In this document: positions 3,611 to 45,814 of the stretch, piece after piece
How the letters are laid out: each line of letters begins with the position of its first letter
Numbering within the stretch: position 1 is the first letter of the stretch
The notes under the pieces: generated by a model
The model's input: only the letters and a program-made list of their open reading frames with translations
Told to the model about the DNA's origin: nothing
Databases searched by the model: none
Assembly (NCBI GenBank): GCA_030040035.1
Contig: JASHUJ010000075.1
Location: 1 to 60,954 of the forward strand
Origin: Thermoplasmata archaeon
GTDB taxonomy: Archaea; Thermoplasmatota; Thermoplasmata; Lutacidiplasmatales; UBA184
Direction of reading: 5' to 3'
Length of the DNA: 60,954 nt
Made by a program: the position numbers and the translations under genes

Positions 3611-3616
3611 GCGCGC

Positions 3617-4255: not shown

Positions 4256-4276
4256 CGTCGTCCGAGGTCGAGGCGC

Positions 4277-5464: not shown

Positions 5465-5487
5465 CGTTCCTCCGTGCTTCGGTCCCT

Positions 5488-5679: not shown

Positions 5680-5740
5680 GGCGCCTCGGCTGCGACGGAC
5701 CCGGGCGGTATAAAAGGGCTCCTCGAGCGGCGCGGGCCGC

Positions 5741-6703
5741 TCACGAGGCGGGCGGGACGTGGACCGCGGGCGCGCGCGCCGCCAGCCAGCGCTCCGCGTC
5801 GATCGCGGCCATGCAGCCGGAGCCGGCGGCGCTGACGGCCTGCCGGTAGTGGCGGTCCTGCACGTCCCCCGCGGCGAAGACCCCCTCCACGCTCGTGCGG
5901 GTGTGATCGTGGACCTTCACGTAGCCGTCCCGGTCGAGGTCGAGGACCCCCCGGAAGACCTCGGTCGAGGGCACGTGGCCGATCGCCACGAAGAGGCCGC
6001 CGACCTTGAGCTCGCGCGTCGAGCCGTCCTTCACGTGGCGCACCCGGACCCCTTCGACCGAGTCCCGGCCCAGGACCTCGACGACCTCCGAATCGAGGAC
6101 GAACGAGATCTTCGGGTGGGCCCGGGCCCGGGCCGCCATGATCGGGCTCGCGCGCAGCGAGTCGCGCCGGTGGACGATCGTCACGTGCGTCGCGAAGTTG
6201 GTGAGGAAGAGGGCCTCCTCCATCGCGGTATCCCCGCCGCCGACGACGACGAGCTCGCGGCCCTTGAAGAAGAACCCGTCGCACGTCGCGCACGCCGAGA
6301 TGCCGTGGCCCATGAGCCGCTTCTCCGACGGCAGGTCGAGCCAGCGCGCGTTCGCCCCGGTCGCGACGATCACGGCGTCGGCGAGGTAGGTACCCTGCGT
6401 ACCGGTCTCGACGCGCAGCGGGGTCCGGGTGAAGTCGACCCGGGTGGCGTTGTCGTCGACGAATTCCGCCCCGAACCGCTCCGCCTGGCGGCGCATCCGG
6501 TCGATGAGCTCCGGCCCCTGCACCCCCTCCGGGAACCCGGGGTAGTTCTCGACGTCCGTCGTGATCAAGAGCTGGCCCCCGGCGGGCACGCCGGCGATCA
6601 CCACGGGCCTCAACTCGGCCCGCGCCGCGTAGAGCGCGGCCGTGAGACCGGCGGCGCCGCTGCCCAGGATCAGCAGTCGCACCGCGCGAGGTTCGGGTGC
6701 CAT
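5741..6703 (-). CDS. trxB: thioredoxin-disulfide reductase
   Basis: [17 protein letters not shown], redox-active [16 protein letters not shown]...[15 protein letters not shown]. Confidence 0.9.
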
Positions 6704-6760
6704 CGTAGATTCGAGTCGGCGAGGGATTAAAACGGAGCCCCCGCCGCGCGCGAGGGGCGC

Positions 6761-7288
6761 TCAGCGCCGACCGGCCGGGAGGCGGAGCCGGTCGGGCGCC
6801 TCGGCCTCCGAGTAGGCGGACCGGAAGAACAGGAGCGGAAGTCCGTCGCGGCCGGTCTCTTGGTGGTCGACCTCCCCGACCAGGAGGATGTGATCGCTCA
6901 CCGCCCATCGCGCCGCGACCTGGCATTCGAGCCCCCCCAAGGTGCCGTCGAGCAGCGGGGTCCCGCCCGGGGCCCGGTGGAACGCGAGCTCCCGGAACTT
7001 CGCTTCGGACGGCTCGTTGCGGGCGAACCGCTCGCTCAGCGCTCGCTGGTCCGCCGCGAGGAGGCTCACCCCGAATCGGCCCGAGCGCGCGATGACGGGA
7101 AGCGTATCGACGTCCCGGGCGAGGCTCACGAGGACGCTCGGTGGGGCGAGCGACACCGAAAGGAACCCGTTCACGGTGAGCCCCGCATCGTCCCGCCCCT
7201 CGTGGGCCGTGACGACCGAGACGCCCGTCGCCCAGCGTCCCATCAGCCGACGGAACTCCTCGGGGCTCGGGGCGCTCGCAGGGGCCAT
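6761..7288 (-). CDS. flavin reductase-like (FMN-binding split barrel) protein
   Basis: FRRLMGRWATGVSVVTA...GLTVNGFLSVSLAPPSVLVSL pattern. Confidence 0.8.
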   Translation of the reverse strand: MAPASAPSPEEFRRLMGRWATGVSVVTAHEGRDDAGLTVNGFLSVSLAPPSVLVSLARDVDTLPVIARSGRFGVSLLAADQRALSERFARNEPSEAKFRELAFHRAPGGTPLLDGTLGGLECQVAARWAVSDHILLVGEVDHQETGRDGLPLLFFRSAYSEAEAPDRLRLPAGRR

Positions 7289-7291
7289 CGC

Positions 7292-8413
7292 TCACTCATC
7301 CCGCCACTTGAACAGGCGGACGGCCAGCGCGAAGACGACGAGGCCGGCGACGAGGACCACCGCGAGGTCCGCGAGGGCGCGGGACATGTTCGCGAAGAGC
7401 ATCACCTGGTTCATCCCGTCGATCACGTAGTACAGCGGGAGGACGTGGGCGAACGTCTGGAGGTACGGCGGGAAGCTCGACACGGTGAAGAACGTCCCCG
7501 AGAGGAACATCATCGGGAACGTGATGATGTTCCCGATGAGCGCCGCACTCTCGGGGGTCTTCGCGACCGTGCCGGCGAGCATGCCCAGCGAGACGAAGAA
7601 GAACGGCCCGACGATCAGGAACGGGACGAGGCCCAGCGTGAGCGCGACGTGCGCCGAGAACAGGTAGACGCCGGCGCCGATCATGATGCCCGCCGTGACG
7701 AACGTGAGGGCCACGTACCACGTGATCCGGGAGAGGAGCCACTCGGCCCGGGTGAGCGGCGTCAGCGACAGCTCCCGGAAGATCCCGTCCTTGCGGTACG
7801 ACGAGGCGATGTCGACCATCGAGAACATCGGGCTCGTGAGGATCGAGAACCCGATCAGGCCCGGGATCAGGTAGTCGATGTACGTGTAGACCTGGCTCCC
7901 CACGTTCTCGCTCGTGTAGCCGATCACGGGAGCGCAGACGGACCCGGAGCAGGCGCGGGCGAGGTTGAAGCCGTTCGCCACGCCCTGCACCGCCCCGAGC
8001 ACCGTGCCGGAGGACGCGGCGTCCGAGGGGTTCGTGAAGACGGTCAGGTTCGTCGGGGTCCCGTTCCGATAGTTCGCCGCGAAGCCGTCCGGCACGATGA
8101 GGCCGACCGGATCGTCGTTCTTCCCGAGCCACGAGGCGAAGTTCGACGGCGAGACGGTCGTGTCGGAGACGACGTTGACCTTCACGACGCTCGTGTTGTT
8201 CAGCGCGGCGAGGAACTCGCGGCTGACGGGGGAGTTGTGGTCGAGATTGAGCACCTCGACGGTCACGGGCCCGCTCCCGGTCGCCGAGAAGATGAGACCG
8301 AAGAGCGCGATGAGGATGATCGGGAAGATCAGGGAGAAGAACAGCGCGACCGGATTGCGGAGGTAGCTCCGCATGACGACTCGGAAGTCGGCGGCCACGT
8401 GCCGGAAGTTCAT
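7292..8413 (-). CDS. ABC-2 type transporter permease
   Basis: MNFRHVAADFRVVMRSYLRNPVALFFSLIFPIILIALFG. Large extracytoplasmic loop followed by 5 TM helices. ATGA overlap with the ATPase gene. Confidence 0.8.
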   Translation of the reverse strand: MNFRHVAADFRVVMRSYLRNPVALFFSLIFPIILIALFGLIFSATGSGPVTVEVLNLDHNSPVSREFLAALNNTSVVKVNVVSDTTVSPSNFASWLGKNDDPVGLIVPDGFAANYRNGTPTNLTVFTNPSDAASSGTVLGAVQGVANGFNLARACSGSVCAPVIGYTSENVGSQVYTYIDYLIPGLIGFSILTSPMFSMVDIASSYRKDGIFRELSLTPLTRAEWLLSRITWYVALTFVTAGIMIGAGVYLFSAHVALTLGLVPFLIVGPFFFVSLGMLAGTVAKTPESAALIGNIITFPMMFLSGTFFTVSSFPPYLQTFAHVLPLYYVIDGMNQVMLFANMSRALADLAVVLVAGLVVFALAVRLFKWRDE

Positions 8414-9378
8414 CGAGGGGTCTCCTGCTTGAGCGCCCCATCGTCCATCTGCCCGACGAGCCGGACGAAGACGTCCTCCAGGGTGTCCCGCGACGTCTGG
8501 AACGAGTCCCACGGCAGACCGCTCGCTTCGATCGCGCCGAGGATCTTGAGCGCGTCCGACTTATCCGCCAGCTCGACGGACACCCGGCCGTTCTCGACCG
8601 CCACGGGGCGGTCCAGGTGCTGCTCGAGGTACGTCGCGAGCTCGGGCGGCCCCGCGACTTCGATCCGCTCGGGGCGGCCGTTCGCGCGGATGATCTCGGC
8701 CGGCGTGCCGGCCGCGATGATCTTGCCGTGGTGGATGATCGCGACCCGGTCCGCCAACAGCTCGGCCTCCTCGAGGTAGTGGGTCGTCAGGAACACCGTG
8801 CGACCCTCCCCCTTCAGGCTCCGGATGACCGCCCAGATCGCCCGGCGTGCGTGGGGATCGAGACCGGTCGTCGGCTCGTCGAGGAAGCAGATCTCGGGAT
8901 TGTTCGTGAGCGCGAGGGCGAGTCCGAGCTTCTGCTTCTGCCCGCCCGAGAGCGTGTCAAAGCGCGCGTCGATCTTGTCCAGCAATTCTACTTGGGCCAG
9001 GAGCCGCGCCGGGTCGACGTCCGTGTGGAACAGCGCCCGATAGTACTCGATCGCCTCCCGGGCCGTGATTTTCTCGAAGAATCGGAAGTCCTGGGGGATC
9101 ACGCCGATGCGCCGGTGGAGGGCCGCCCCATCGGTCCAGGGATCGAGCCCGAGCACCTCGACGTCCCCCGACGTCCGGCGCCGTAGCCCCTCGAGGATCT
9201 CGGTGGTTGTCGTCTTCCCGGCGCCGTTGGGCCCGAGGAACGAGAAGACCGTACCGGCCGGGACCGAGAAATCGATCCCGCCCACCGCGGAGAGGTTCCC
9301 GTACTGCTTCACCAGGCCGTGAACCTCGATGGCGGCGCTCACGGGGCCCGGGTAGGAAAGGAAGATATGAAGCCTCAC
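8410..9378 (-). CDS. ABC transporter ATP-binding protein
   Basis: Walker A GPNGAGKTTT, signature LSGGQKQKL, Walker B ICFLDEPTTGLD. The true start may be the GTG at 9342 (VSAAIEVHGL). Confidence 0.9.
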   Translation of the reverse strand: MRLHIFLSYPGPVSAAIEVHGLVKQYGNLSAVGGIDFSVPAGTVFSFLGPNGAGKTTTTEILEGLRRRTSGDVEVLGLDPWTDGAALHRRIGVIPQDFRFFEKITAREAIEYYRALFHTDVDPARLLAQVELLDKIDARFDTLSGGQKQKLGLALALTNNPEICFLDEPTTGLDPHARRAIWAVIRSLKGEGRTVFLTTHYLEEAELLADRVAIIHHGKIIAAGTPAEIIRANGRPERIEVAGPPELATYLEQHLDRPVAVENGRVSVELADKSDALKILGAIEASGLPWDSFQTSRDTLEDVFVRLVGQMDDGALKQETPR

Positions 9379-9524
9379 GCGCGCGAGAACGTCGCACGGT
9401 CCGCCGGCGTCCGAGGCCGATGGGCGCGCGACGCCGGTTGCTCGGGGCGAGCCGTGGTTACGCCCTCCGCAAGCCCGATCGGCGGGCGAAGTGATTTATC
9501 GGGGCACCCCACCCCCGCGCCGTC

Positions 9525-10469
9525 TTGGCGGCATCCCCCCCCGGTCCACGTCGGTCCCTCGCGAGCGCGCTGCCGGATCACCCGCTGTTCTTCGAGCCCG
9601 TCCCGCCGGGGATGCGGGTCGTCCCCTCGGCGGTCGCTGCGCGCATCGACGCGCTCGCCTCGCTCGTACAGTCGGTCCCCCGCACGGACGCCACGGTCGT
9701 CCCCGAACTTGTCGACGAGAACCACGAGGGTCGGCCGCGCTACCGCTCGGGCGACCTTCGGCAGTTCGCGGGCGAGCTTGCCGCGCGTTCCGGGCGCGAG
9801 ACGATCCTCAACAAGGCGGTGGCGTACGTCGGCTCCGAGGCCGAGCTCGAGCAGTGGGCGCGGGAGACCGTCGCTCACGGAGTCCGCAACGCCGTCCTGG
9901 TCGGCGGGGCGAGCCGGTACATCCCGTACTCCGGCCCACCGGTCACGACCGCCGACCAGCTCCTCCGGCCGATCTTCCGAGCGGCCCAGGGCGTGATCGG
10001 GAACATCGCGATCCCCCAACGAGCGGGAGAGGCGCACCGGATGCTCTCGAAGACGCGGGCCGGCGCGTCGTTCTTCACGACGCAGATCCTGTTCGATGCG
10101 CACCAAGTGATCCCGGTCCTGCGGGACTACGACCTCCTGTGCCGCCAGGCGGCAACCCCCCCGGCGCCGGTCGTCGTGAGCTTCGCGCCGATCGCGGACG
10201 AGATGGACCTCGAATTCGTCCAGTGGCTCGGCGCGGACCTCTCGGACTCGGCCGAGGTCGCGATCCTGGACGGTCCCGAGGCGGAGACCGCGCAGCGGAG
10301 CGAGGCCCGGGCGTTCGAAGTCTGGGACGAGCTCGTGGCCGCCGTTCGCCGAGAAGAACTCTCGGTCCCTCTCGGCGTCAACGTCGAGCAGATATCTCCC
10401 CGGCACCTGGAGCCGGCGGGCCGGCTCCTCCGGCGGTTTGCCGAGCGACCGCCCTTTACCGGGACGTAG
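9525..10469 (+). CDS. methylenetetrahydrofolate reductase-like (MetF-fold) protein
   Basis: GASFFTTQILFD...PVVVSFAPI resembles the MTHFR TIM-barrel C-terminal half. The start codon is uncertain (TTG at 9525). Confidence 0.45.
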   Translation: MAASPPGPRRSLASALPDHPLFFEPVPPGMRVVPSAVAARIDALASLVQSVPRTDATVVPELVDENHEGRPRYRSGDLRQFAGELAARSGRETILNKAVAYVGSEAELEQWARETVAHGVRNAVLVGGASRYIPYSGPPVTTADQLLRPIFRAAQGVIGNIAIPQRAGEAHRMLSKTRAGASFFTTQILFDAHQVIPVLRDYDLLCRQAATPPAPVVVSFAPIADEMDLEFVQWLGADLSDSAEVAILDGPEAETAQRSEARAFEVWDELVAAVRREELSVPLGVNVEQISPRHLEPAGRLLRRFAERPPFTGT

Positions 10470-33555: not shown

Positions 33556-33762
33556 CCTAGGGCGGGCCCGGGAACCGGGGGACTCGAGGCGTCCGGCCGC
33601 CTGTCTCGAACCGGGGAGGAGTTCGGGTCGCTCTCTTCGCCGGCTCTCGCCGGCTGCTGACCTTCGGCGATCCCCCGGCACTCGCGACTCCCCAGGGACG
33701 GGGTTTAATTGCGCCACCGAAATCCTCGGGCGGAGTTCTGGCCGGTGTCGCATCACGCGCGG

Positions 33763-36700
33763 GTGCATCGAGGCACGACGGGCCGATTGGCGGTGACCGC
33801 CGTCGGCGCCTGCGTCCTCGTGTTGCTGATCAACTCGCTGGCCTCGGGTCCGCTCGACGCGGTGGGGGGCGACGGGACCCTCGCCACGAGCCCGGCAACG
33901 GGCCCGCCCGGATCGCAGGGCAGCGCCTTGCTCTCGGCGGCCGCCGCGTCGCTCGGGCGAGGCGCGGGGCCGGCTGCCGGTGCGTCGCTGCAGTGCACGG
34001 AGTCCTCGAGTGCCGGGTCCGAGTCGTGCGCGGCCCCTTCTCCCGCCCTGGCCGCGACGAGCGCGGCACCGGGGTTCGCCTCTCCCCCCCCGGAGTGGGG
34101 ATACTACCTCGCCTACGACGAGCTCGACCACTACGTTCTCTTGCTCGGTGCCGGGGCGGAGACGTGGACCTTCTCCCACGGAGTCTGGAGCGAGCTGCAC
34201 CCGAAGGTCGCGCCGCCGTCCCGATCCCGCATGAGCCTCGCCTACGACCCCGCGGGTCCGTACGTCCTCCTGTTCGGTGGACTCGGCCTCAAGTCCGCGA
34301 CCGACGCCCTCAACGACACGTGGACGTACGCGGCGGGCGTCTGGACGAACCTCACGTCGTCCGCGGGGCACGCGCCCAGCCGCCGGTACCACGCGGTGAT
34401 GGCGTTCGATAACGAGAGCGACGAGATGGTCCTGTTCGGCGGGACGAACAACACCGCGGCCGTCGGGGACACGTGGTACTTCGACGCCGGGAAGTGGTCC
34501 CAAGTCCCGATCGGTGGCGTCCTGTGCGGCGGGCCGGGCCAACCGGACTGTGCGAACGGCACCGCCCCGACGGATCGCTATGGCGCGTCGATGGTCTACG
34601 ACGCCGCGAGCGACTACCTCCTTCTCTTCGGGGGCGGAGCCCACGATCCGGCCTTGAAGGGCAACAAGACGTACTCGGATACCTGGGAATTCTCGGGTGG
34701 CGCCTGGACCAACATCACCCCGGCGAAGTCGTCCCCGCCGCCCCGCATCCTGGCCACGCTCGCCTACGACTCGCTCGACAAGTACGTCATCCTGTTCGGC
34801 GGGCTCGTCACGAACAAGATCCTCAACGCCGGCAACGATACCTGGCGGTTCTCGAAGGGCAGTTGGACCGAGCTCCACCCACCGATCTCCCCGCCGACCC
34901 GCGTGCAGGCGGGCATGGCGTACGACCCGGCCGACGGGTACATCGTCCTATTCGGCGGTCTCTCGTCGACCGCGTACAACGCACCGATCCTCGGCGACAC
35001 CTGGGTCTTCCAGTCCGGAAGCTGGATGGAGATCTCGGTCACGGCTTCCCCGACCCCGCGCGCCGGCGAAGGGCTCGCGTACGACGCCACGGACCACTAC
35101 GATCTCCTGTTCGGCGGCGTCTACGGACCGTTCGTCCTCAACGACTCGTGGCGATTCGTCAACGGTACGTGGACGAAGCTCGATCTCGCGGGGCCCGTGC
35201 CGTCGCCCCGGTACGACGCGAGCCTCGCCTACGACGCGCACGACGGCTACGTCGTGCTGTTCGGCGGACGGAACGCGACGCACTACCTCGACGACACGTG
35301 GACGTACTCGCAAGGCCGGTGGACCCAGCTTCACCCCTCGACCTCGCCGCCGGCCCGGGCGAGCGCGGCCATCGTCTACGACGCCGCGAGCGACGAGCTC
35401 GTGCTGTTCGGTGGGCAGAACTCGACGACGACGTTCAAGGACACGTGGACGTTCGAGGGGGGCGTTTGGACGTCGGTGGTCTCCGCCAGCCACCCGGCGT
35501 CCCGCTCCTCCGCCAGCCTCGCGTACGTCCCGTCGAGCGGGACGGCGGTGCTCTTCGGAGGTCTCGGCCCGAGCGGGGCGATCCTGGACGACACTTGGAC
35601 GTTCCAGGCAGGTCTGTGGACGAACGACTCGCACAAGGTCGGATCGGCCCCGCCGGCGGAGTACGGGGGGGCCTTCGCGCAGGATCTCGCCGACGGGTAC
35701 GCCGTGCTGTTCGGCGGGAACACGAGCGCGGGGCCGAGCAACGAGACCTGGGAATACTCGCCCAACGCCTGGACCGAGGTCGCTCCGACTCCGTACCCCT
35801 CGGCCCGCGAGGGATCGGCGATCGCGTACGACCCGAGCTACGAGTCGCTGCTCCTGTTCGGTGGGTTCGGCAACGGCCGGCCGCTGAACGACGGCTGGCT
35901 CTTTGCGCTCGGCAACTGGACCGCGCTCCTCCCGCCCGCTCGTCCGTCCGCTCGCGTCTCGGCGTCGATGGTCTATGACGGCAAGGACAACTACGTGCTC
36001 CTCTACGGCGGGATCGATGGAACCCGTCTCCTCGGCGACACGTGGGAGTACCTCAACTACGTCTGGACCCAGGTCACGACGTCGCAGGCCACGCCTCCGG
36101 CGCGCTTCGACGCCTCGTTGGTCTACGATGCGACGGACCACTACGTCCTCCTGTTCGGAGGCGAAGGGACCGGGGGGCCGCTCGGCGATACCTGGGACTA
36201 CAACAACGGGCAGTGGTCGAACCTCACCCCCAAGCACTCGCCGCCGTCGCGCCTCGGCGCCGCGATGGTGTACGACCCTCGCGATGCGTACGTGGTCCTG
36301 TTCGGCGGGATCGGTGCGAGCGGTCAGGACCTCGCGGACACGTGGACGTACTCGCACGGCGCGTGGAGCGAGATCAGTCCCGCGACCGCCCCGAGCGGAC
36401 GCGCCAACGCGAGCGCGACGTTCGACGCGCTCGACGACTACGTGGTCCTCTTCGGCGGGGTCCGCGGTTCGACGTATCTGTCGGATACGTGGACGTTCGC
36501 CGGCGGGAATTGGACCAAGCTCCAACCGGCCCAGCCGCCGGCCGCGCGGGCGTCGGCGAGCTTGACGTACGACTCCGCCGACAAGTACGTCCTGCTGTTC
36601 GGTGGGGAGGGAGCGTCCGGAGCGCTCGGCGACACGTGGACGTTCGCGGGGGGCGAATGGAGCCCGCTCGCGGTGACCACCGCCCCGTCCCCGCGGAGCG

Positions 36701-37707
36701 GCGCCGCGGCAGCCTTCGACTCGCGCGACGGCTACGTGTTCCAGTTCGGCGGAGCGTCGGCCGCGGGGGCCCAGGCGGACTCCTGGACGTTCGTGCGGGC
36801 CATCTGGGTGGGCATCGACCCCTCGACCGCCGCCCCGGCCCGGTACGATGCGGCGATGGTCTACTCCGACAAGTACGAGAGCGTCGTGCTGTTCGGGGGG
36901 TACGGGACGAACGGGCCGCTCAACGACACCTGGGAATTCGCGGATGGCGTCTGGACCGAGGTCACGGTCACGACGCGCGCGCCGGCGGCCCGGTACGACG
37001 CGAGCATGACCTTCGACGAGAAGGACGAGTACATCGTCCTCTTCGGCGGTCGGAACGGATCGACGATCTTCGACGACACGTGGGAGTTCAAGCTGCTCAA
37101 GTGGACGAAGCTCAATCCCGCGAGCCATCCGTCGCCGCGGTACGGGGCGGCGATCGCCTTCGACTCGGTGGCGAAATACGTCGTCCTGTTCGGGGGGACC
37201 GATGGAACCGCGACGTACGGGGACACGTGGACGTTCGTGAAGGGGCAGTGGACCAACGTGTCGCCGGCGATCGGCCCCGGCCCTCGCCACGACGCGGCCT
37301 TGGCCTACGACGCGTACACCCACCAGCTCGTCCTCTTCGGCGGGGTCGGTAGCGCCGGCGCGTACCTCGCCGACACGTGGACCTTCTCGAGTGGGACCTG
37401 GAGCCGGATCACGCCCGTCAACTCGCCGGCCGCGCGTTCCGGCGCTACCTTGTACTACAATTCCCCGACCCGCAGCCTGGTGCTGTACGGTGGGGAAGGT
37501 ACGGCAGGGGCGCTCGGCGACACGTGGGCGTTCTCGAACGGCAATTGGACGTCGGTGGGCCCGCCGCAATCGCCCGGGGCGCGCTACGGCGCGACGATGG
37601 TCTACGATACGATCGACGGCTACGGCGTGCTCTTCGCGGGCACGAACGGCACCGGGCCCCTGAACGACACGTGGACGTACGACGACGGGACGTGGGCGCC
37701 CGCTTGA
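33763..37707 (+). CDS. giant secreted/surface Kelch-repeat protein (about 24 repeats)
   Basis: N-terminal signal/anchor RLAVTAVGACVLVLLINSLASG, then 24 units of ~50 aa: R..a..vYD......VLFGG......l.DTW.f..g.W. The track start is TTG 33709, but that codon lies inside a TTTAATT box (33704-33710), so GTG 33763 is preferred. Confidence 0.85.
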   Translation: MHRGTTGRLAVTAVGACVLVLLINSLASGPLDAVGGDGTLATSPATGPPGSQGSALLSAAAASLGRGAGPAAGASLQCTESSSAGSESCAAPSPALAATSAAPGFASPPPEWGYYLAYDELDHYVLLLGAGAETWTFSHGVWSELHPKVAPPSRSRMSLAYDPAGPYVLLFGGLGLKSATDALNDTWTYAAGVWTNLTSSAGHAPSRRYHAVMAFDNESDEMVLFGGTNNTAAVGDTWYFDAGKWSQVPIGGVLCGGPGQPDCANGTAPTDRYGASMVYDAASDYLLLFGGGAHDPALKGNKTYSDTWEFSGGAWTNITPAKSSPPPRILATLAYDSLDKYVILFGGLVTNKILNAGNDTWRFSKGSWTELHPPISPPTRVQAGMAYDPADGYIVLFGGLSSTAYNAPILGDTWVFQSGSWMEISVTASPTPRAGEGLAYDATDHYDLLFGGVYGPFVLNDSWRFVNGTWTKLDLAGPVPSPRYDASLAYDAHDGYVVLFGGRNATHYLDDTWTYSQGRWTQLHPSTSPPARASAAIVYDAASDELVLFGGQNSTTTFKDTWTFEGGVWTSVVSASHPASRSSASLAYVPSSGTAVLFGGLGPSGAILDDTWTFQAGLWTNDSHKVGSAPPAEYGGAFAQDLADGYAVLFGGNTSAGPSNETWEYSPNAWTEVAPTPYPSAREGSAIAYDPSYESLLLFGGFGNGRPLNDGWLFALGNWTALLPPARPSARVSASMVYDGKDNYVLLYGGIDGTRLLGDTWEYLNYVWTQVTTSQATPPARFDASLVYDATDHYVLLFGGEGTGGPLGDTWDYNNGQWSNLTPKHSPPSRLGAAMVYDPRDAYVVLFGGIGASGQDLADTWTYSHGAWSEISPATAPSGRANASATFDALDDYVVLFGGVRGSTYLSDTWTFAGGNWTKLQPAQPPAARASASLTYDSADKYVLLFGGEGASGALGDTWTFAGGEWSPLAVTTAPSPRSGAAAAFDSRDGYVFQFGGASAAGAQADSWTFVRAIWVGIDPSTAAPARYDAAMVYSDKYESVVLFGGYGTNGPLNDTWEFADGVWTEVTVTTRAPAARYDASMTFDEKDEYIVLFGGRNGSTIFDDTWEFKLLKWTKLNPASHPSPRYGAAIAFDSVAKYVVLFGGTDGTATYGDTWTFVKGQWTNVSPAIGPGPRHDAALAYDAYTHQLVLFGGVGSAGAYLADTWTFSSGTWSRITPVNSPAARSGATLYYNSPTRSLVLYGGEGTAGALGDTWAFSNGNWTSVGPPQSPGARYGATMVYDTIDGYGVLFAGTNGTGPLNDTWTYDDGTWAPA
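34080..37700 (+). repeat. tandem ~150-nt coding repeats (Kelch blades)
   Basis: GACACGTGGACGT(A/T)C (codons D-T-W-T-Y/F) recurs about every 150 nt, e.g. near 34316, 35293, 35441, 36341, 36631, 37221 and 37666. Confidence 0.8.
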
Positions 37708-38462: not shown

Positions 38463-40547
38463 GTGGCCGAGACGTACGACGTCGCGATCCTCGGCACGGG
38501 ACTCTTCGGCGCGGCATTGGCCTACCATCTCGCCGAGGACCCGTCCCTCCGCATTCTGGCGATCGACGCGGAGCGCACCCCCCGGCAGCCCAGCGCGACC
38601 GATGCGAGCGCCGGGATCCTCTCGGTGCAGGGCTGGGATCCCTGGGACCTCGGGATCGTACGGGAGAGCACCGAGGAGTACGTCGAGATCGCCGAGCGGG
38701 AAGGTGCGCCGCCCGTCCGACGTGACGGAGGTCTGCGCGTGGCCCGAACGGAGGTCGGGGTCCGCTGGCTCGCCCGGGTGCAGCGCGTGCTGGAGCGAGA
38801 AGCGGTCGCGAACCGGCAGGTCGGGCCCGAAGCGGTCCGGGAGATCCTCCCCATCGCCGATCTGAGCGACGTCCGGGCGGCGCTCTTCACTCCGGACGAC
38901 GCGACGATCGAACCGACCGCGATCCGATCCGGCTATCTCCGAGCCGCCCAGCGCGCCGGGGTCGACCAGCGCTCCCGGGCCGACGGGATCCGTGTCGATC
39001 GACTTGCGGACGGCGCGTGGAGCCTCGGGACCGAGCCGACCTGCGTCGCCCGCGCGCTGGTCGTCGCCGCGGGTGCCTGGTCGAAGGGGGTCCTCCAGTC
39101 GCTCGGCCACTCGATCCCGGTCGCACCGTTCCGGGCGCAGGTCGTCCGGTTGCGGCCCCGCCCCCTCCTCCCGCCGTTCCCTACGCTCCACGATCTCGAC
39201 CTGGGTCTCTACGTGCGGTCGGCCCCCGACGGTCGCGTCCTGGCGGGCGATGGGACCGGGTCGACCGAGGAGGACCCCTTCCGCTGGGAGGCGGAGGCGG
39301 ACCGATCGTTCGTCGAGCGGATGGAGGCGAGCGTGGGGTCCCTGCTCGGCGGACTTCCGACCGCCCCCCGTGAGGCCGCGTCGGCCGGGCTCTGCACGGC
39401 CTCTCCCGACCGCTATCCGCTGGTGGGCCGGGTCCCGAGGGCCGAAGGATTGTACATCGCGACCGGGTTCAACGGGTTTGGCGTGATGCGGGCCGGGGGT
39501 CTCGCGCGGCGCCTCGCCGAGGCGATCCGTTCGGGTCGGTGGGAGACCTTACGTCCGGCCGACCCAATGCGGTTCCCGGAACCCGGCCTTCCGTTCGACC
39601 CGGTTCCTGAGTTTCCGCTGGAATCCGAGGGCGAGGATCCCGGACCGGTTCGGGACGGGAGCCCGCGGCCGACCGTTCCGGCCGCCGTACGGCGGGGGGA
39701 CGGAGCCATCGGATACCGATCGATCGGGACGCTCGAGGAGGTCGACCACCTGCGCTGGGCGCCGCTCTCCGGGTGGTTCGATCCGTTCCTTCCCACGTTC
39801 GCGAAAGACGCACTGCGGACCGGCGGAGCGGTCGAGGTCGCCGAGGACGGCGGGACGGTTCGGGGCCTCCTCCTGTCCGGGGCCAGCGAGGGCGTGGGAT
39901 CCGGGTTTACGCGGACCCGCGCGATCGCCGAGCGGTACCTCACCGCGATGGATCCCGCCGGACTCTACCTGGAGGCACCGTGGGTCCCGGGCGGGGCGCC
40001 GGTCGAGGTCTTCGCGGCGGACCTTCGGGATTGGACTCCCCGGGAAGGGATCCGGAACCCAGTGCGGATCGCCGGGCCCCGGGACCTCGAACCGATCCGA
40101 TCGTTGATGCGCGCTCTACTCGGGCCGGGGGTCGACCCGTGGATCGCGACGCTGCCGCGTCCCGAGGAATCCGGCTTCCTGTGCGAACTCGACGGACGGG
40201 TCGTGGGGGTCAGCTGGCTCACCCGCGTGGGGGGGTACGCGCGCGGCCACTCGTTCCTCGTGCACCCCCGCTTCCGAGGGCTCGGGATCGGAGCGGACCT
40301 GCTCACCGCCCGGATGCACTGGTTGCGGCGCACGGGAGGTCGGCAGGTCGTGAGCGAGATCTACGACGGCAACGTCGCCTCGCGGGCGGCCGCCGAGCGG
40401 GCCGGGATGGCGCCGGTGGGCCGCATGTTCCACTTCGGGCCGTCGGCGCGCGCGCGACCTCTCGCTACGTTCGAGGTGCCCCGCAGTTGGGGCAGTTCGT
40501 GGCCGTCGAGTCCATCAGCGTCCCGCAGTACCGGCACGGGACCTTGA
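38463..40547 (+). CDS. FAD-dependent oxidoreductase (DAO-type) fused to C-terminal GNAT acetyltransferase
   Basis: YDVAILGTGLFGAALAYHLA (GxGxxG) ... GFNGFGVMRAG. The C-terminus is VVGVSWLTR...HPRFRGLGIGADLL...SRAAAERAGM (GNAT motif A). Confidence 0.7.
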   Translation: MAETYDVAILGTGLFGAALAYHLAEDPSLRILAIDAERTPRQPSATDASAGILSVQGWDPWDLGIVRESTEEYVEIAEREGAPPVRRDGGLRVARTEVGVRWLARVQRVLEREAVANRQVGPEAVREILPIADLSDVRAALFTPDDATIEPTAIRSGYLRAAQRAGVDQRSRADGIRVDRLADGAWSLGTEPTCVARALVVAAGAWSKGVLQSLGHSIPVAPFRAQVVRLRPRPLLPPFPTLHDLDLGLYVRSAPDGRVLAGDGTGSTEEDPFRWEAEADRSFVERMEASVGSLLGGLPTAPREAASAGLCTASPDRYPLVGRVPRAEGLYIATGFNGFGVMRAGGLARRLAEAIRSGRWETLRPADPMRFPEPGLPFDPVPEFPLESEGEDPGPVRDGSPRPTVPAAVRRGDGAIGYRSIGTLEEVDHLRWAPLSGWFDPFLPTFAKDALRTGGAVEVAEDGGTVRGLLLSGASEGVGSGFTRTRAIAERYLTAMDPAGLYLEAPWVPGGAPVEVFAADLRDWTPREGIRNPVRIAGPRDLEPIRSLMRALLGPGVDPWIATLPRPEESGFLCELDGRVVGVSWLTRVGGYARGHSFLVHPRFRGLGIGADLLTARMHWLRRTGGRQVVSEIYDGNVASRAAAERAGMAPVGRMFHFGPSARARPLATFEVPRSWGSSWPSSPSASRSTGTGP

Positions 40548-41514
40548 CGGTCTCCCGGATCACGACCTGCTGGACCGGCGGCTGGTCCCGCGGGATGAGG
40601 TTCACCGGGGCGGGCGGCGCGAACGTGGGCATCGTGCCGGGGACCGCGGTCGTCGGGTGACGCGGCAGTGCGGGACCGCGTCGTCGGCGCCGCAGGGCCA
40701 CGGCCACGACGAGGACCACGATGACGACGACCACGATCGCGGCCACCACGATCAGCCACGGGAAGGACGGGGTCGTCGAGGTCGACGGGGGCGGGGACGT
40801 CGACGTGAGCGCGAAGCTCGTCTGGGTGTCCGTGAGCCGGTCGGTGTACGTGAACCCGTCGCCGGCCGAATCCGAGTCGTGCTCGGTGTACACGTAGCCG
40901 AGGATGTAGCCGGTCCCCGGATCGAAGTAGGCCTTCCAGTTGTAGGCGGCGGCGAAGTCCCCGTACGCGTCGTCCCGCTGGTAGCTCCCGTTGCCTTCGG
41001 TGAAGATCGAGGCCACGTATCCGGTCGGGCTCGAAGCCAGGGCGAACGGAACGTCCGTCCCGACGACCGTCATCGGGGAGTTCAGGAGGTCGAACGGGGC
41101 GCCCGGGCCGAGACTGTCGTTCATGTAGAACCACACGTACGGATCGACGTACCCGGTCTGGTTGTCCGTTCCGGCGACGTAGTGGAAGCTCGTGCCCGAG
41201 AACGAGAACGAGCCCCCCTCGGACCAGGGATAGTCGGCGCCCTGGTCGTTCTGGTACGTCCCCGAGGCGGCGTAGGTCGCGTTCGCGGTTCCGTTCGGAG
41301 CGACCGCGGTGACCGCGATCGAGCCGGTGTAGCTGCCCGTCTCGGTGTAGCCCGAGTAGTTCCCGGTGCCGTTCGTGACGGTGATCGTCTCCGCGTACGC
41401 GAACCGGTCGCCGGCCGCCGGCAGGTAGTGGCCGGGTCCGCTCGCGGTCGCGGTGCCGGCCAGCCCGAGGACGCCGAACAGGATCAGGAGGAACCCGACG
41501 CCCCGGGCTCTCAT
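40465..41514 (-). CDS. type I membrane protein: signal peptide, Tyr/Gly/Thr-rich ectodomain, STP stalk, TM helix, cytoplasmic zinc ribbon
   Basis: MRARGVGFLLILFGVLGLAGTATASG; at least 7 N-x-S/T sequons; TSTSPPPSTSTTPS; WLIVVAAIVVVVIVVLVVAVALRRRRR; CRYCGTLMDSTATNCPNCG. Confidence 0.65.
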   Translation of the reverse strand: MRARGVGFLLILFGVLGLAGTATASGPGHYLPAAGDRFAYAETITVTNGTGNYSGYTETGSYTGSIAVTAVAPNGTANATYAASGTYQNDQGADYPWSEGGSFSFSGTSFHYVAGTDNQTGYVDPYVWFYMNDSLGPGAPFDLLNSPMTVVGTDVPFALASSPTGYVASIFTEGNGSYQRDDAYGDFAAAYNWKAYFDPGTGYILGYVYTEHDSDSAGDGFTYTDRLTDTQTSFALTSTSPPPSTSTTPSFPWLIVVAAIVVVVIVVLVVAVALRRRRRGPALPRHPTTAVPGTMPTFAPPAPVNLIPRDQPPVQQVVIRETVKVPCRYCGTLMDSTATNCPNCGAPRT

Positions 41515-43052
41515 CCGCCGAACCCTCCGCCCCAGCCCCCGCCGCCGACCGCGTGGAGATGGGCCGGGTGGACCCCGCCCATCGCGCTGTACGTCGCGTA
41601 GTAGCCGCCGTGGACGACCACGACCGGGATCCAGAGCCGGGGCGCGGCGTTGTAGTACGAGAAGCTCGGGTACGTGGCGGGCTTCGTCTGCGTCGGGTCG
41701 AGCTCGTTGACGCTCCGGACGTTCACCCCATGGATCGTCCGCACCGCGAGCGAGAGCAGCTCGGCCGACGACATCGGACCGGTGCGCTGCCCGAGGATCT
41801 CGTACGCTTTCTCGAGCAGGTTCAGCGTCTCGTTCGCCTCCAGGACCGGGATCGAGGCGAGGATCGCGGCGGCGACGAGCGGGTACTCGAGGTAGGCGCT
41901 CACCCCCCGCACGAGGATCGCCATCTTCGTCGCGATCGTCCCGGGCGGCAGGTCGGAGAGCGCGAGATAGGCGGACGCGAGCTCGGTGTCCTCGCTGACC
42001 GAGTACCCCCAGCCGGAGAAGATCGCCTTCACCTGGGTGAAGGCGGTCTTAAGGTCGGCGAACGGCTTGTTCACGATCGCGAGCAGCGCCGCGGATTCGT
42101 ACGACGGGGTGACGCGCAGGAACTGCGCCAAGGGGTCGGTCGCGAACGTCCCGTCCGCCCGTCGACCCGAGAGAAGGATGGCCGCCACTCCCGGAGCGGC
42201 GTCGTCCGGGATCCCGAGCGTCCGGACGTTTGTTACGAGCGTGCCCAGGTCGGCGCTCGAGTTCGCGAGGGGCTGAGGGATGCCGGTGAGCACCTCGGAG
42301 GCGAGCAGCCGGTTCTCGAGGTTCGACGTCAACGCGGCGACCGCGTGGTACGCCGCCAGGAACGCCGGGACCTGCTGCGCGGGATCGCCCTTCTGCTTCG
42401 CGATCCCGATGGCGACCGCCCAGAGGTAGACGGGATCGATGCCGGCGAGGGCCTGGGAAAGGGGTACGTGGACCGCCGCGGCTTGGTTGACGATCGAGCC
42501 GATCTCCGTGTCGATCGCTTGGGCCTGGGTCCAGTACGACGCGAACTCCTCGTCGCCGACCCGGTAGAGCGCGACGTTGAGGTCGCGCAGGGCCACGCGA
42601 CCGGCGGTGGTGATCGCGATGAACTGGCCGTCGTACGCGCTCATCTGGGCGAGCTCGCCCTGCTTCACGAGGAGCTGCGCGAAATCGGCCTCGCGCTTCG
42701 CGACCTCGGCCTCGAGGGACTGCAACGCCTCCTGCTCCTGGTGGAGCTGGTCGACCGACGCCTCCTCCTTGTCAACCCCCTCCAGGTGGAAGAGGACCGA
42801 GTGCGTGCGGCGCGTGTCCGTCGTGAGGGAGTCGGACATCTGGGCGACCTGGGCCTTCTCCTGGTCGATCGCGGCCTGGGCGGCCTGCAGCTGGGCGACC
42901 TCCGCTTCGAGCTGGGTCTTCTGATCCGGCGACAGCAGGTCGATGAGCCCGAGTTGTTGGAGCGCACTCACGTCCGTCGCGGCGAGATTCCCTTGGACCG
43001 ATCGGGCGCTGACGCTCTGCAGGAACGCGGCGACGTGGGTGCAGTCGGGCAT
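41511..43052 (-). CDS. coiled-coil + helical-domain protein with Gly/Trp-rich C-terminal tail (no family recognised)
   Basis: ATG at 43052, 1 nt after the upstream stop. Heptad-like QLEAEVAQLQAAQAAIDQEKAQVAQ and EQEALQSLEAEVAKREADFAQLL. Tail HAVGGGGWGGGFGG. ATGA overlap with the next gene. The track ORF 41511..43799 over-extends. Confidence 0.6.
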   Translation of the reverse strand: MPDCTHVAAFLQSVSARSVQGNLAATDVSALQQLGLIDLLSPDQKTQLEAEVAQLQAAQAAIDQEKAQVAQMSDSLTTDTRRTHSVLFHLEGVDKEEASVDQLHQEQEALQSLEAEVAKREADFAQLLVKQGELAQMSAYDGQFIAITTAGRVALRDLNVALYRVGDEEFASYWTQAQAIDTEIGSIVNQAAAVHVPLSQALAGIDPVYLWAVAIGIAKQKGDPAQQVPAFLAAYHAVAALTSNLENRLLASEVLTGIPQPLANSSADLGTLVTNVRTLGIPDDAAPGVAAILLSGRRADGTFATDPLAQFLRVTPSYESAALLAIVNKPFADLKTAFTQVKAIFSGWGYSVSEDTELASAYLALSDLPPGTIATKMAILVRGVSAYLEYPLVAAAILASIPVLEANETLNLLEKAYEILGQRTGPMSSAELLSLAVRTIHGVNVRSVNELDPTQTKPATYPSFSYYNAAPRLWIPVVVVHGGYYATYSAMGGVHPAHLHAVGGGGWGGGFGG

Positions 43053-43053
43053 C

Positions 43054-44238
43054 TCAGGCGTCCACGAGCGGAAAATTGGTATAAAGTCCCTCGTCGGCGA
43101 GGGCGTTCCGGATCTGGAGCGACGCCGGCCGACCCTCCCCGGCGAGCCGGACGTACCGGTCCTGCGCGAGCGCCCGTTCGAGCAGGGCGACGAGCTGCGC
43201 CTTGCGCGACTCCGGGCCCCCGAACCGTCGTCGGCGTTCCTGATCGATCTGCTCGTAAGCGAAGAGGAATTCGTACAGCGATCGGAACACTTGGTCCTCG
43301 ATCTTCTCCCGTACCCGATCCCGGTCGACCCCCTCCTCCTCGATCCCTTCGAGGTCGACGAAGTAGACGGTACCGTCGGGGGCGATGACCGCGTCCTTGT
43401 CCAGCCAGACGTCGTGGAAGTCGAGCCCGTAGTACCGGTCCCGCGCGGGGTCGAACCGGAGCGTCCGTGCGAAGAGCGTGAGGAGCGGGACGGTCGAGCG
43501 CAAGTAGGCGACCTCGAACTGGAGGGCCTGCTGGGCCGAGTCGAGGTGGAAATGGTCGAACACGTCGCGCACGCCCGTACCCACGGTCTGTTTTCCGTGG
43601 AAGTAGATGCGCACGTTCGAAGGGACGAGTCGGATCTCCTGGACGATCGGTCCGGGGAATCGACGGAACCAGTGCAGCGACCGGATGCGCTCCTCGAGGA
43701 CCGGGGGCAGGTGGGCGATCTTGACGACCGGCGCGAGGCGGAATCCCGCGAGCGACGTGAGATCGGCCCGCTCGGAGATCCCGAGCGCGATGCGCGCATG
43801 CTCCAGCCCTTGGCCGCCGTACGGGGAACCCCGCAGCCAGACCTCGCCCGTGATGATCCGCTCCGGATCGTCCGGGGCGGGCGGCACCGTCGGCGAGGCG
43901 AGCCGGCGGCGCACGTCGGGATCCTCGGTCAGCCGCTCCACCGACGACCGGTCGAGCGGCCGGGACGCGAACGGATCCACGGCGGATCCGACGCCTTTCA
44001 CCGACAGATAGAAGGCGGTCCCGTCGAGGGTCGCGATCGGGTCGGTCGCGACCGCGCCGCGGTTATCGTCCTCGAGGAACGACCGAACCGCGATCGGGGG
44101 ATCGTCCAGCAACCCGGTCAGGGCGGGCGGCAAGAAGAGCCGGTCGAGCGCCGGTAACTCGACGTGGCGGAACCGGTCATTCGTGGTCGTGCGCGCCGGG
44201 TACTCGGCGAGCCGGATCGGCATCCCGCGGAGGGACAC
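43054..44238 (-). CDS. protein-kinase-like-fold protein (atypical, family not recognised)
   Basis: YLSVKGVGS (beta3-Lys-like), FHDVWLDKDAVIAPDGTVYFVDLEG (catalytic-loop-like HxDxxxxD plus a metal-binding DxE/DFG-like site). Confidence 0.5.
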   Translation of the reverse strand: MSLRGMPIRLAEYPARTTTNDRFRHVELPALDRLFLPPALTGLLDDPPIAVRSFLEDDNRGAVATDPIATLDGTAFYLSVKGVGSAVDPFASRPLDRSSVERLTEDPDVRRRLASPTVPPAPDDPERIITGEVWLRGSPYGGQGLEHARIALGISERADLTSLAGFRLAPVVKIAHLPPVLEERIRSLHWFRRFPGPIVQEIRLVPSNVRIYFHGKQTVGTGVRDVFDHFHLDSAQQALQFEVAYLRSTVPLLTLFARTLRFDPARDRYYGLDFHDVWLDKDAVIAPDGTVYFVDLEGIEEEGVDRDRVREKIEDQVFRSLYEFLFAYEQIDQERRRRFGGPESRKAQLVALLERALAQDRYVRLAGEGRPASLQIRNALADEGLYTNFPLVDA

Positions 44239-44434: not shown

Positions 44435-45814
44435 TTGGCGCCGGTCCGACGTTCCGAGCCGCCGATTGCCGCGCGCCCGACGCGCGAAGAACGCTACCGT
44501 TGGGGCAAGCGCCTGCGTCAAAAGGTGCCGCGGTCGAGCCAGGCGATCTGGTCGCCGGCGCGCGATCGACCGGACCCGCTGGAACTCCTCGCCCGGTCCG
44601 ACCGGCGTCGCGTCGCGGAGCTCTTGCCCATCCGGTACGGCCGCATGTCGCTCAACCCGTTCGCCTTCCTGCGCGGCGCGGCCGACGTGATGGCGTCCGA
44701 TCTCGCGTCGACGCCCACGACCGGTCTCCGCGTGCAGCTGGGTGGGGACGCCCACTTGAGCAACTTTGGGATCTTCGGCACGCCCGAGCGGCACGAGGTC
44801 TTCGACCTCAACGATTTCGACGAGACCCTGCCCGGTCCCTGGGAGTGGGACGTGAAGCGGCTGGCCACGAGCTTCGTGGCGGGGGGTCGCGCGCACGCCC
44901 TCGCGCCGGTCGACTGCCACCGGGCCGCGCTCCGCGCGGCCCGATCGTACCGCGAGTCGATGAACTCCTACGCGTTCGAGCGATACCTCGACATCTGGTA
45001 CTCGCACCTCGACCCGGAGCAAGTCTCCGAGCAGGTGCGCCGCGGGGCCCGCCGGGTGATCGGCCGGCTCGCCCGACGGGCGCGCGGTCGGACGGTGCTG
45101 CACGTATTCCCCAAGGTCGTCCGGAAGGTCGGCGGAGGCTATCGGATCCGGGACGTCCCGCCGCTCATCGTGCACTACCCGGGACGGTGGCGGCAGGAGA
45201 TCACCCACGTACTGATCCAGCGCTATCTCGCGACGATCCCCGAGGATCGGCGGATGCTGCTCGAGCGATACCGGATCGCGGACGTGGCCCAGAAGGTCGT
45301 CGGCGTCGGCAGCGTGGGGACCCGTTGCTCGGTCATCTTGCTGGTCGGGGATCGGGACACGGACGACCCGGTGCTCCTCCAGTCGAAGCAGGCTCTCCCG
45401 TCCGCGCTCGAGCCGTATGCGGGGCCGAGCACCTACGCGAACCACGGACAGCGGGTCGTCGTCGGCCAGCACCTGATCCAGCAGTCGAGCGACAGCTTCC
45501 TCGGATGGGGGTCGATCCGGTCGGAGGACTTCTACGTTCGCCAGCTCCGCGATTGGAAGTTCTTCCCCGATCTCGACTCGATGGCGCCGAGGGAGTGGCT
45601 CGGCCATGCCGAGTTGTGCGGGGCGGCGCTCGCCCGGGCCCACGCGCGCACGGGGGACCCGGCCGCGATCAGCGGCTACCTGGGTACGAAGGGCACGTTC
45701 GAGGAGGCGATCGCACGGTTCGCCGAGGCCTACGCCGATCAGACCCAACGCGACTACGCCGAGATGATGGCGGCGATCCGGCACGGCCGCCTCCCAGCCC
45801 GGCGGGGCGCCTAG
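44435..45814 (+). CDS. DUF2252 family protein
   Basis: ELLPIRYGRMSLNPFAFLRGAA...LGGDAHLSNFGIFGTPERHEVFDLNDFDETLPGPWEWDVKRL is the hallmark DUF2252 pattern. There is no in-frame ATG near the N-terminus, so TTG at 44435 is proposed. Confidence 0.75.
   Translation: MAPVRRSEPPIAARPTREERYRWGKRLRQKVPRSSQAIWSPARDRPDPLELLARSDRRRVAELLPIRYGRMSLNPFAFLRGAADVMASDLASTPTTGLRVQLGGDAHLSNFGIFGTPERHEVFDLNDFDETLPGPWEWDVKRLATSFVAGGRAHALAPVDCHRAALRAARSYRESMNSYAFERYLDIWYSHLDPEQVSEQVRRGARRVIGRLARRARGRTVLHVFPKVVRKVGGGYRIRDVPPLIVHYPGRWRQEITHVLIQRYLATIPEDRRMLLERYRIADVAQKVVGVGSVGTRCSVILLVGDRDTDDPVLLQSKQALPSALEPYAGPSTYANHGQRVVVGQHLIQQSSDSFLGWGSIRSEDFYVRQLRDWKFFPDLDSMAPREWLGHAELCGAALARAHARTGDPAAISGYLGTKGTFEEAIARFAEAYADQTQRDYAEMMAAIRHGRLPARRGA

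Follow-up and report, generated by a model that had tools for sequence, protein, structure and literature searches.

The 60,954-nucleotide contig JASHUJ010000075.1 of a Thermoplasmata archaeon (GenBank assembly GCA_030040035.1; Lutacidiplasmatales in the GTDB lineage), hereafter referred to as the window, possesses a three-gene operon, the genes of which are designated as g1, g2, and g3. They code for a putative enzyme of the protein-kinase-like (PKL) superfamily, a coiled-coil and helical-repeat protein, and a predicted membrane glycoprotein with a cytoplasmic zinc ribbon, respectively. Convergent with g3 lies an open reading frame (ORF) that carries a GNAT acetyltransferase module. We found that g3, GNAT, g1, and g2 are four co-inherited components of one module. 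Because GNAT is conserved and, in some lineages, fused to parts of g3, the unit is one of four components and not of three.

We tentatively favor a reading in which the module is a membrane-tethered complex of an anchor, the GNAT, and the g1/g2 pair, both enzymes modifying a shared target. In such a complex, g3 would hold the GNAT at the inner membrane face, either by zinc-ribbon docking or by fusion, and g1 and g2 would join as an enzyme–partner pair binding at the same membrane site. The ATP-dependent g1 and the acetyl-CoA-dependent GNAT would covalently modify a common target, most probably g2 or a protein recruited by g2, and the cytoplasmic modification state would be coupled to whatever the g3 ectodomain binds. 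In support of this reading, g1 retains the Lys and two metal-binding acidic residues of the superfamily, the acetyl-CoA motif of the GNAT is intact, and the best solved relatives of the GNAT are protein N-terminal acetyltransferases. The genes and domains concerned are as follows.

43054-44238, minus strand: g1, 394 aa, GTG start
41511-43052, minus strand: g2, 513 aa, acidic and helical
40465-41514, minus strand: g3, 349 aa, predicted type-I membrane glycoprotein
39720-40457, plus strand: GNAT acetyltransferase module, aa ~420-665 of the 694-aa ORF at 38463-40547, convergent with g3
38478-39521, plus strand: DAO-family flavin adenine dinucleotide (FAD) oxidoreductase domain, aa 6-353 of the same ORF, N-terminal to the GNAT module (Pfam DAO, E 1.6e-52)

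The window has a GC content of ~70% and is crowded with spurious overlapping ORFs. A preliminary description, made from the sequence alone, had read g1, g2, and g3 as a tightly coupled operon, and its ORFs and junctions were confirmed in both coordinates and sequence. The g1/g2 junction is gacgccTGAgATGccc, in which the stop and the start are 1 nt apart (TGAgATG), and the g2/g3 junction is ggcggATGAgag, in which ATGA is common to the g2 stop and the g3 start. Likewise, the motifs that it had listed (YLSVKGVG in g1, the end of g2, and the seven sequons, RRRRR, and CxxC-x10-CxxC of g3) are all where it had placed them. In the NCBI call for an identical contig, g1 starts five codons downstream, which gives a protein of 389 aa. 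No clear promoter or Shine–Dalgarno element is visible upstream of g1. Homologues at E <= 1e-3 number more than 1,100 for g1, 355 for g2, and 374 for g3; all are unnamed or 'hypothetical', those of g3 also 'zinc ribbon domain-containing', and the organism labels shown are all 'Thermoplasmata archaeon'. Such numbers of homologues, together with a gene order kept in 80 species-representative genomes, go beyond chance, and g1–g3 are thus genuine genes despite the background of chance ORFs.

Gene order was examined in a scan of one genome per GTDB species. Relatives of g1 were present in at least 234 of them, and the order was taken from the best 80 loci; the denominators below are the loci with enough contig sequence. 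g2 follows g1 in 74 of 75 loci, the single exception being a partial match, and g3 comes next in all 70. The spacer between g1 and g2 is usually <=1 nt and is exactly 1 nt in 48/72 loci. The GNAT gene lies directly after g3, in convergent orientation, in 65 of 66 loci. Among loci with ample downstream sequence, only L058 has no GNAT detected after g3, which could reflect a real loss or a strongly diverged copy. All of the 80 loci are labeled as Thermoplasmata or Thermoplasmatota metagenome-assembled genomes (MAGs) except for one 'bacterium', and they include Candidatus Lutacidiplasma silvani, a member of the soil order described in PMC9287336. The lowest identities to the window among them are 50% (g1), 37% (g2), and 41% (g3); g1 identity decays gradually from 79% to 50%, and the flanking genes are partly conserved. 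One conserved locus in most genomes and a gradual decay of identity form a pattern of vertical descent. Taken together, g1-g2-g3 is a long-conserved operon and no local accident. The tight coupling is supported by the junctions and the conserved order, and the co-occurrence of the trio, which the preliminary description had left to be checked, extends across Thermoplasmata. Its proposal of a three-gene unit stands insofar as g1, g2, and g3 are kept together, but the convergent GNAT gene belongs to the unit equally.

As a side observation, two contigs of MAG YP4.bin112 (L005 and L065) each carry the full operon, with g1 76% and 57% identical to that of the window; this represents either a true duplication or a mixed bin.

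That enzymes and a membrane protein without annotation should travel together would also fit an anti-virus defense system or mobile-element cargo. We regard this as highly improbable, since PADLOC matches none of the four proteins, the locus is single and conserved with a pattern of vertical descent, and no integrase or transposase adjoins it. This last statement, like those below on the lack of other conserved neighbors, refers to the loci with listed gene calls.

The GNAT module in the window matches Pfam Acetyltransf_1 (PF00583) at aa 563-649 with an E-value of 1.4e-11 and 45.1 bits against a cut-off of 20.7, and the same model also matches the fusion and stand-alone forms described below. 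It has two parts, of which the N-terminal one is a conserved half-domain of ~110 aa and the other a canonical GNAT, and the R-x-x-G-x-G acetyl-CoA motif is invariant (R205, G208, and G210). Its closest solved relatives are RimI (5isv, E 1.4e-12), Thermoplasma Ard1 (4pv6, E 1.5e-10), and Naa30 (E 8.7e-9). The module is therefore like the NatA-type enzymes RimI and Ard1, which are its nearest structures and whose acetyl-CoA motif it keeps, but it differs from them in the extra half-domain, in a membrane tether in some lineages, and in a DAO fusion in others. The full DAO-GNAT fusion is found in 12 of 65 loci, all in the clade closest to the window; elsewhere the GNAT is a protein of 256-288 aa.

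In the window, the DAO-GNAT ORF and g3 run into each other at their 3' ends and share 83 nt on opposite strands (40465-40547), so that the last ~35 codons of the GNAT ORF are antisense to the zinc-ribbon codons of g3. Because other GNAT orthologues end earlier, the C-terminal extension probably arises by read-through, the frame being GC-rich and poor in stops. Even if so, the convergent transcripts of g3 and GNAT would still overlap.

A profile search of 1.84 billion proteins yielded g1 relatives, 34-39% identical to g1, in four lineages with a different architecture (L085/L086, L087, L090, and L091). Their operons open with a protein of 500-588 aa that consists of a g3-like ectodomain, a transmembrane helix, and a cytoplasmic GNAT. 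The ectodomains match g3 by BLASTP with E-values of 9e-23, 2e-8, 4e-13, and 4e-9 and by hhalign with a probability of 97% (E 4e-11), and the GNAT parts match that of the window with E-values of 1e-16, 6e-17, 1e-13, and 1e-14. The fusion gene is followed by a g1-like gene, which overlaps or nearly abuts it, and then by a gene for a distant g2 relative of 484-533 aa (BLASTP against g2, E 4e-6 to 1e-3; hhalign probability 91%, E 1e-6); the g2-like protein of L087 links to g2 via that of L090 (E 2e-46). One relative that is about as distant as those of the fusion type is labeled Thermoplasmata.

In the fusion proteins, the GNAT sits in the place of the g3 zinc ribbon. A fusion of ectodomain, transmembrane helix, and GNAT ties g3 and GNAT functionally and defines the core set as an ectodomain-bearing anchor, a GNAT, g1, and g2. 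It also suggests that the g3 zinc ribbon would most likely dock the GNAT and not the g2 scaffold plus the kinase-like g1. The arrangement recalls single-pass receptor kinases, such as the bacterial PknB type, which likewise combine an ectodomain, one transmembrane helix, and a cytoplasmic enzyme. In contrast to these kinases, the receptor of the fused lineages is covalently joined to the GNAT, and the kinase-like g1 is a separate soluble polypeptide.

Two further observations were made in the fusion lineages. Just upstream of the fusion-type operon, L086 encodes a 57-aa double zinc-ribbon protein with weak similarity to the g3 ribbon (534-707, minus strand; BLASTP E 8e-4), and the ribbon, lost from the anchor protein of this operon, may persist there as a separate small protein. 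In L091, a 285-aa gene without a Pfam match or similarity to g3 (8978-9835) overlaps the stop of the g2-like gene.

The architecture of g3 was read from its sequence, alignment, and Pfam matches.

40807-41442, minus strand: g3 ectodomain, aa 25-236, beta-rich, Tyr/Gly/Thr-rich, with 7 sequons
40678-40806, minus strand: g3 S/T/P stalk, single transmembrane helix, and RRRRR stop-transfer (aa 275), aa 237-279, by sequence reading
40483-40536, minus strand: g3 cytoplasmic zinc ribbon CxxC-x10-CxxC, aa 327-344, predicted from alignment and Pfam

The N-x-S/T sequons are at N48, 52, 74, 78, 118, 132, and 175, and the conserved ectodomain motifs are GTDNQTGY, VWFYMNNSL, EGNGSYQR, and YFDPxTGY. The ectodomain has no Pfam match in any of 21 members and no PDB match. 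The ribbon cysteines (C327, C330, C341, and C344) are invariant in 21/21 sequences, and a QPxVQQIVxRETVKV strand ahead of them is (nearly) invariant. Zn_ribbon_3 and Zn_Ribbon_1 match all 21 members with a best E-value of 6e-6; the ribbon of g3 in the window scores 21.4 bits, below the cut-off of 27. Judging from these features, g3 is predicted to be an N-glycosylated type-I membrane protein, the ectodomain of which is novel and the cytoplasmic part of which carries a zinc ribbon.

These features had led the preliminary description to a three-protein mechanism of outside-in signaling, in which g3 would be a receptor whose zinc ribbon docks the g2 scaffold and the kinase g1, and g1 would phosphorylate cytoplasmic targets. 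The topology of g3, the coupling of the operon, the conservation of the trio, and the PKL fold of g1 with its conserved Lys and Asp all fit this mechanism, which is a reasonable one, yet we consider it unlikely. It has no place for the GNAT, whose conservation (65/66) equals that of the trio. The ribbon is swapped for GNAT in four lineages while g1 and g2 are retained, which indicates that the ribbon is dispensable for docking g1 and g2. Moreover, g1 has neither a Gly-rich loop nor a well-conserved catalytic base, and the neighborhood contains no conserved phosphatase, response regulator, or transcription factor.

The assignment of g1 to the PKL superfamily is based on a structural model and on residue conservation. 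No Pfam or NCBIfam model matches g1, which thus lies outside the named families, as had been anticipated, and Pfam gives no match for 44 relatives at E <= 0.01. With hidden Markov models of kinase families (Pkinase, APH, RIO1, Kdo, ABC1, DUF2252, and others), neither g1 nor its relatives gave a match even at E <= 10, and the IucA_IucC model (PF04183) did not match g1 at that threshold. Sequence and profile searches of the PDB with g1 and a broad g1 profile returned chance matches only. The profile search of 1.84 billion representative proteins returned only 127 clusters, none of which has a Pfam domain, and the g1 family is therefore not bridged to a known family by sequence.

The AlphaFold model of g1, built with 29 homologues, has a predicted local distance difference test score (pLDDT) of 86.8 and a predicted template modeling score (pTM) of 0.87. 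A Foldseek search of the PDB with this model gave matches of which the top 50 listed are apparently all of PKL fold (TM-scores of 0.17-0.38), none with E < 1e-3. The NIS siderophore synthetases are at the top: DesD is the best match (E 1.6e-3, probability 0.97), and AcsD, AlcC, IucA, IucC, and DfoC also match, the group as a whole with E-values of 1.6e-3 to 3e-2 and TM-scores of 0.31-0.38. SelO (6eac) follows with an E-value of 8.5e-3, a probability of 0.91, and a TM-score of 0.34, while ROP5, ALK2, BMPR2, Bud32, and APH(3') reach TM-scores of 0.18-0.28. Three conserved segments of g1 are listed below.

43987-44010, minus strand: YLSVKGVG, aa 77-84, with the candidate beta3 Lys81, which ends model strand 74-81
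43609-43641, minus strand: signature QEIRLVPSNVR, aa 200-210, the best-kept motif among the superfamily members
43345-43419, minus strand: catalytic-loop-like/DFG-like segment FHDVWLDKDAVIAPDGTVYFVDLEG, aa 274-298, from conservation and model

Conservation was counted across 45 superfamily members. Around the candidate beta3 Lys, R60 is kept in 45/45, K81 in 43/45, and G82 in 44/45; the PxGGQ motif is represented by P139 (44/45), G141 (45/45), and Q143 (39/45), and the QExRLxPSNxR motif by Q200 (43/45), R203 (43/45), P206 (45/45), S207 (42/45), and R210 (42/45). In the catalytic-loop-like segment, K281 occurs in 35/45 (Arg in 3 more), D282 in 40/45 (Asn in 2 more), D295 in 44/45, and E297 in 39/45. 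This set of residues without K281, the QExRLxPSNxR motif included, is also invariant in a still more distant archaeal group. The order in the model is kinase-like: strand 268-274, the D276-D282 loop, strands 283-285 and 291-293, and then D295. The Asp295-Leu-Glu sequence occupies the DFG position, 13 residues after D282, which is also the spacing of Asn171 and Asp184 in PKA. The preliminary description had recognized a kinase-like fold in the Lys and loop motifs, and their mapping onto a predicted structure had been set beforehand as the test of that claim; in the AlphaFold model, the motifs fall on the right secondary-structure elements for a kinase-like fold.

Compared with eukaryotic-type, RIO/Bud32, and APH kinases, g1 shares the beta3 Lys, an acidic catalytic loop, and D-L-E for D-F-G. 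Unlike them, it has no GxGxxG loop, the beta1-beta2 turn being D-G/D-N-R60 with the invariant Arg60; its HRD-type Asp is weakly conserved, it has PxGGQ and QExRLxPSNxR as extra invariant motifs, and it has no Pfam match. On the strength of the sequence and the model, g1 very probably functions as an ATP- and Mg-dependent enzyme within the PKL superfamily, in which it founds its own, previously undescribed family. By analogy with SelO, SidJ, and the NIS synthetases, its chemistry could be phosphoryl transfer or, equally, AMP transfer or ligation. SelO and SidJ show that an enzyme of kinase fold with a conserved Lys and Asp is able to transfer AMP or to ligate, but they have no relationship to g1 at the sequence level. 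No coupling of SelO to a GNAT or a membrane anchor is known. For PKL enzymes including SelO and SidJ, AMPylation and glutamylation or ligation rather than phosphorylation are possible (PMC10870513).

Searches with g2 gave no Pfam, NCBIfam, or PDB sequence or profile match beyond chance. The three proteins of the operon had been said to lack an obvious characterized homologue, and none was found for any of them in the Pfam, NCBIfam, and PDB searches or, for g1 and g2, in the Foldseek searches. The main parts of g2, taken from an AlphaFold model with a pLDDT of 74.7 and from the alignment, are listed below.

42648-42929, minus strand: g2 coiled-coil hairpin, aa 42-135, model helices 42-86 and 93-135
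41733-42545, minus strand: g2 alpha-helical repeat (toroid- or solenoid-like) domain, aa 170-440, 14 helices, pLDDT mostly 78-95
41514-41633, minus strand: g2 C-terminal tail, aa 474-513, with a hydrophobic patch, H481/H495-P-x-H498-x-H500, and a Gly/aromatic run

The coiled coil had been placed at the very start of g2. It is present at aa 42-135 of the model, but it does not begin the protein: it is inserted in a small alpha/beta domain formed by aa 1-40 and 136-165. At the tip of the hairpin, the motif DTRRTHSILFHLEG is kept in the clade of the window, with H84, S85, F88, H89, L90, and G92 (near-)invariant. Foldseek found no natural protein in the PDB that is alike and no significant match to the g2 model; the model is similar only to alpha/alpha toroids of designed origin (4yxx, probability 0.93, TM-score 0.54 when normalized to the target). 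The tail is predicted to be disordered over ~65 residues, yet it is among the best-conserved parts of g2, with P476, Y484, T487, G493, H495, P496, H498, and H500 as invariant columns. It ends in HAVGGGGWGGGFGG, and the last residue is Gly in 120/120 homologues. A terminal Gly is also found in the four distant g2-like lineages, the tails of which are otherwise unlike (...HPMHMHTVPYFG, ...GGRGYYG, ...GGGRSWG, and ...HPGHFHGGMG). The H-x-x-GGGGW run of g2 is reminiscent of the copper-binding PHGGGWGQ repeat of the prion protein, which we take as a lead only. It is probable that g2, a large protein of non-enzymatic nature, is a partner or substrate of g1.

Two candidate roles for parts of g2 were considered and set aside. 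The hydrophobic patch of the tail is not a tail-anchor transmembrane helix by hydropathy: no top Kyte–Doolittle window falls there, and the hand-calculated value is ~0.85. Acetylation of the g2 N-terminus by the GNAT, proposed from the small residue 2 and Cys4, is weakened in that neither feature is kept in distant lineages.

Several observations weigh against a membrane-tethered complex with a shared protein target. The structural matches of g1 are weak (E >= 1.6e-3, TM-score <= 0.38). The putative HRD-type catalytic base, D276, is kept in only 27/45 members, and adenylation or ligation consequently fits as well as or better than phosphorylation. In the distant lineages, neither the tip motif of g2 nor its N-terminal Cys is kept. 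More distant g1-like genes of other archaea are solitary, with no GNAT, g2, or g3 beside them. Finally, two features of the GNAT point to a small-molecule substrate, namely its next-best matches, which are phosphinothricin and diaminobutyrate (EctA) acetyltransferases, and its fusion to an amine-oxidase-type DAO domain in the closest clade.

The last two features also belong to a reading in which the module is a membrane-associated small-molecule pathway. Here g1 would act as an ATP-dependent ligase or kinase on an amino acid or amine derivative in the manner of NIS synthetases, the GNAT would N-acetylate this compound, and the DAO domain, where present, would oxidize it. The product, which might be a metal-binding compound, would be handled or exported by g2 and g3. 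NIS pathways pair a synthetase with a GNAT and a flavoenzyme. The NIS synthetases are the top structural neighbors of g1, with higher TM-scores than the protein kinases (0.31-0.38 versus 0.18-0.28), and they are themselves of PKL fold and, like g1, have a GNAT partner; the PDB title of DfoC is that of a desferrioxamine-pathway acetyltransferase/NIS synthetase. The GNAT-DAO fusion in 12 loci and the four conserved His residues in the g2 tail would also be accounted for. In KINtaro, IucA_IucC is entered among the PKL families (PMC10870513 supplement). We nevertheless regard this pathway as rather unlikely. NIS synthetases have a three-domain architecture of ~600 aa, and the matched chains are of 540-586 aa, whereas g1 has 394 aa, ~200 aa fewer than these chains, no IucA_IucC match, and TM-scores below 0.4 to them. 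Siderophore clusters contain no counterpart of g2 or g3, and their pathways use an N-hydroxylating monooxygenase, not a DAO; the flavoenzyme here is of DAO type and is absent from most loci. The neighborhood lacks a conserved transporter or further biosynthetic gene, and the tethering of the GNAT to an ectodomain would be left unexplained.

The terminal Gly of g2 raises a further mechanism, in which g2 would serve as a carrier or tag: g1 would adenylate the C-terminal Gly carboxylate and ligate it to an amine, which might belong to a lipid head group, a protein, or a metabolite. Analogous systems are ubiquitin-like/Atg8 conjugation and the LysW amino-group carrier, except that the activating enzyme here would be of PKL fold. 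NIS synthetases, the structural neighbors of g1, are carboxylate-adenylating PKL enzymes. The invariant R60, R203, and R210 could bind a carboxylate, the g1/g2 spacer of usually <=1 nt is consistent with translational coupling, and the terminal Gly persists in all 120 close homologues and in four distant lineages with dissimilar tails. AMPylation and glutamylation by PKL enzymes are known (PMC10870513). Because the tail is Gly-rich, the terminal Gly is partly explained by composition, the rough chance of finding it in five lineages, treated as independent, being ~0.01-0.02. In addition, g2, a helical protein of 513 aa, is unlike the small carriers of beta-grasp or zinc-ribbon fold, the neighborhood contains no conserved E1 or ATP-grasp gene, and neither a deconjugating enzyme nor an acceptor was identified. 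We consider such a carrier improbable, and the more specific combination in which g1 is a PKL carboxylate-adenylating ligase on the g2 Gly and the membrane-tethered GNAT acts on the same conjugate more improbable still.

No description of the module was found in the literature searched. None of g1, g2, and the g3 ectodomain falls into a described family, and g1 forms a new one inside a known superfamily. The GNAT and the zinc ribbon are domains of an ordinary kind. The combination of g2, the ectodomain, the fusion variants, and the terminal Gly is likewise not described in the literature searched. The g1 family widens the PKL superfamily by an Arg in place of the Gly-rich loop, by the QExRLxPSNxR motif, and by its reach into other archaea. 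From the fusion of ectodomain, transmembrane helix, and GNAT, a concrete and testable scheme can be drawn of how two modifying enzymes are wired at a membrane anchor. If the terminal Gly of g2 were indeed a ligation site, it would represent a new kind of protein conjugation. With g1 as the ligase and the GNAT acting on the conjugate, the module would be a new archaeal tagging, lipidation, or carrier system in which a kinase-fold enzyme takes the role of an E1 or ATP-grasp enzyme. Our searches of protein families and literature found no characterized components of signaling or envelope biology for the uncultured soil archaea of this group, in which the module is solid, well conserved, and experimentally tractable.

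The solitary g1-like genes of other archaea show 20-30% identity and lie in low-GC contigs beside housekeeping genes, such as those for SecY, S6e and L34e, L3 and L4, and Spt5 and L11, and the enzyme family is thus older and broader than the module. A metagenome scan for such genes gave two loci only. In L089, a low-GC archaeal contig, two tandem g1-like paralogues of 409 and 456 aa lie directly after a pair of M16 peptidases (3295-8371). In L092, a g1-like gene is convergent with one for a TldD/PmbA-like protease. As a hint, the M16 and TldD/PmbA neighbors suggest that the wider g1 family may act on peptides.

In the window, the gene divergent from g1 (44435-45814, plus strand) codes for a DUF2252 protein (Pfam E 9e-135), a family that KINtaro lists as protein-kinase-like. 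g1 is not a paralogue of this neighbor by hhalign (probability 0.4%), and their adjacency is absent in both divergent operon loci with listed gene calls (L002 and L003/L004). On the other side of the module, 33709-37707 (plus strand) encodes a secreted protein of 1332 aa with Kelch-like repeats and many N-x-S/T sequons and no Pfam match on record. In L003/L004, giant Kelch/PKD surface proteins are found at the corresponding site beside the GNAT, and the module may be partially syntenic with cell-surface proteins.

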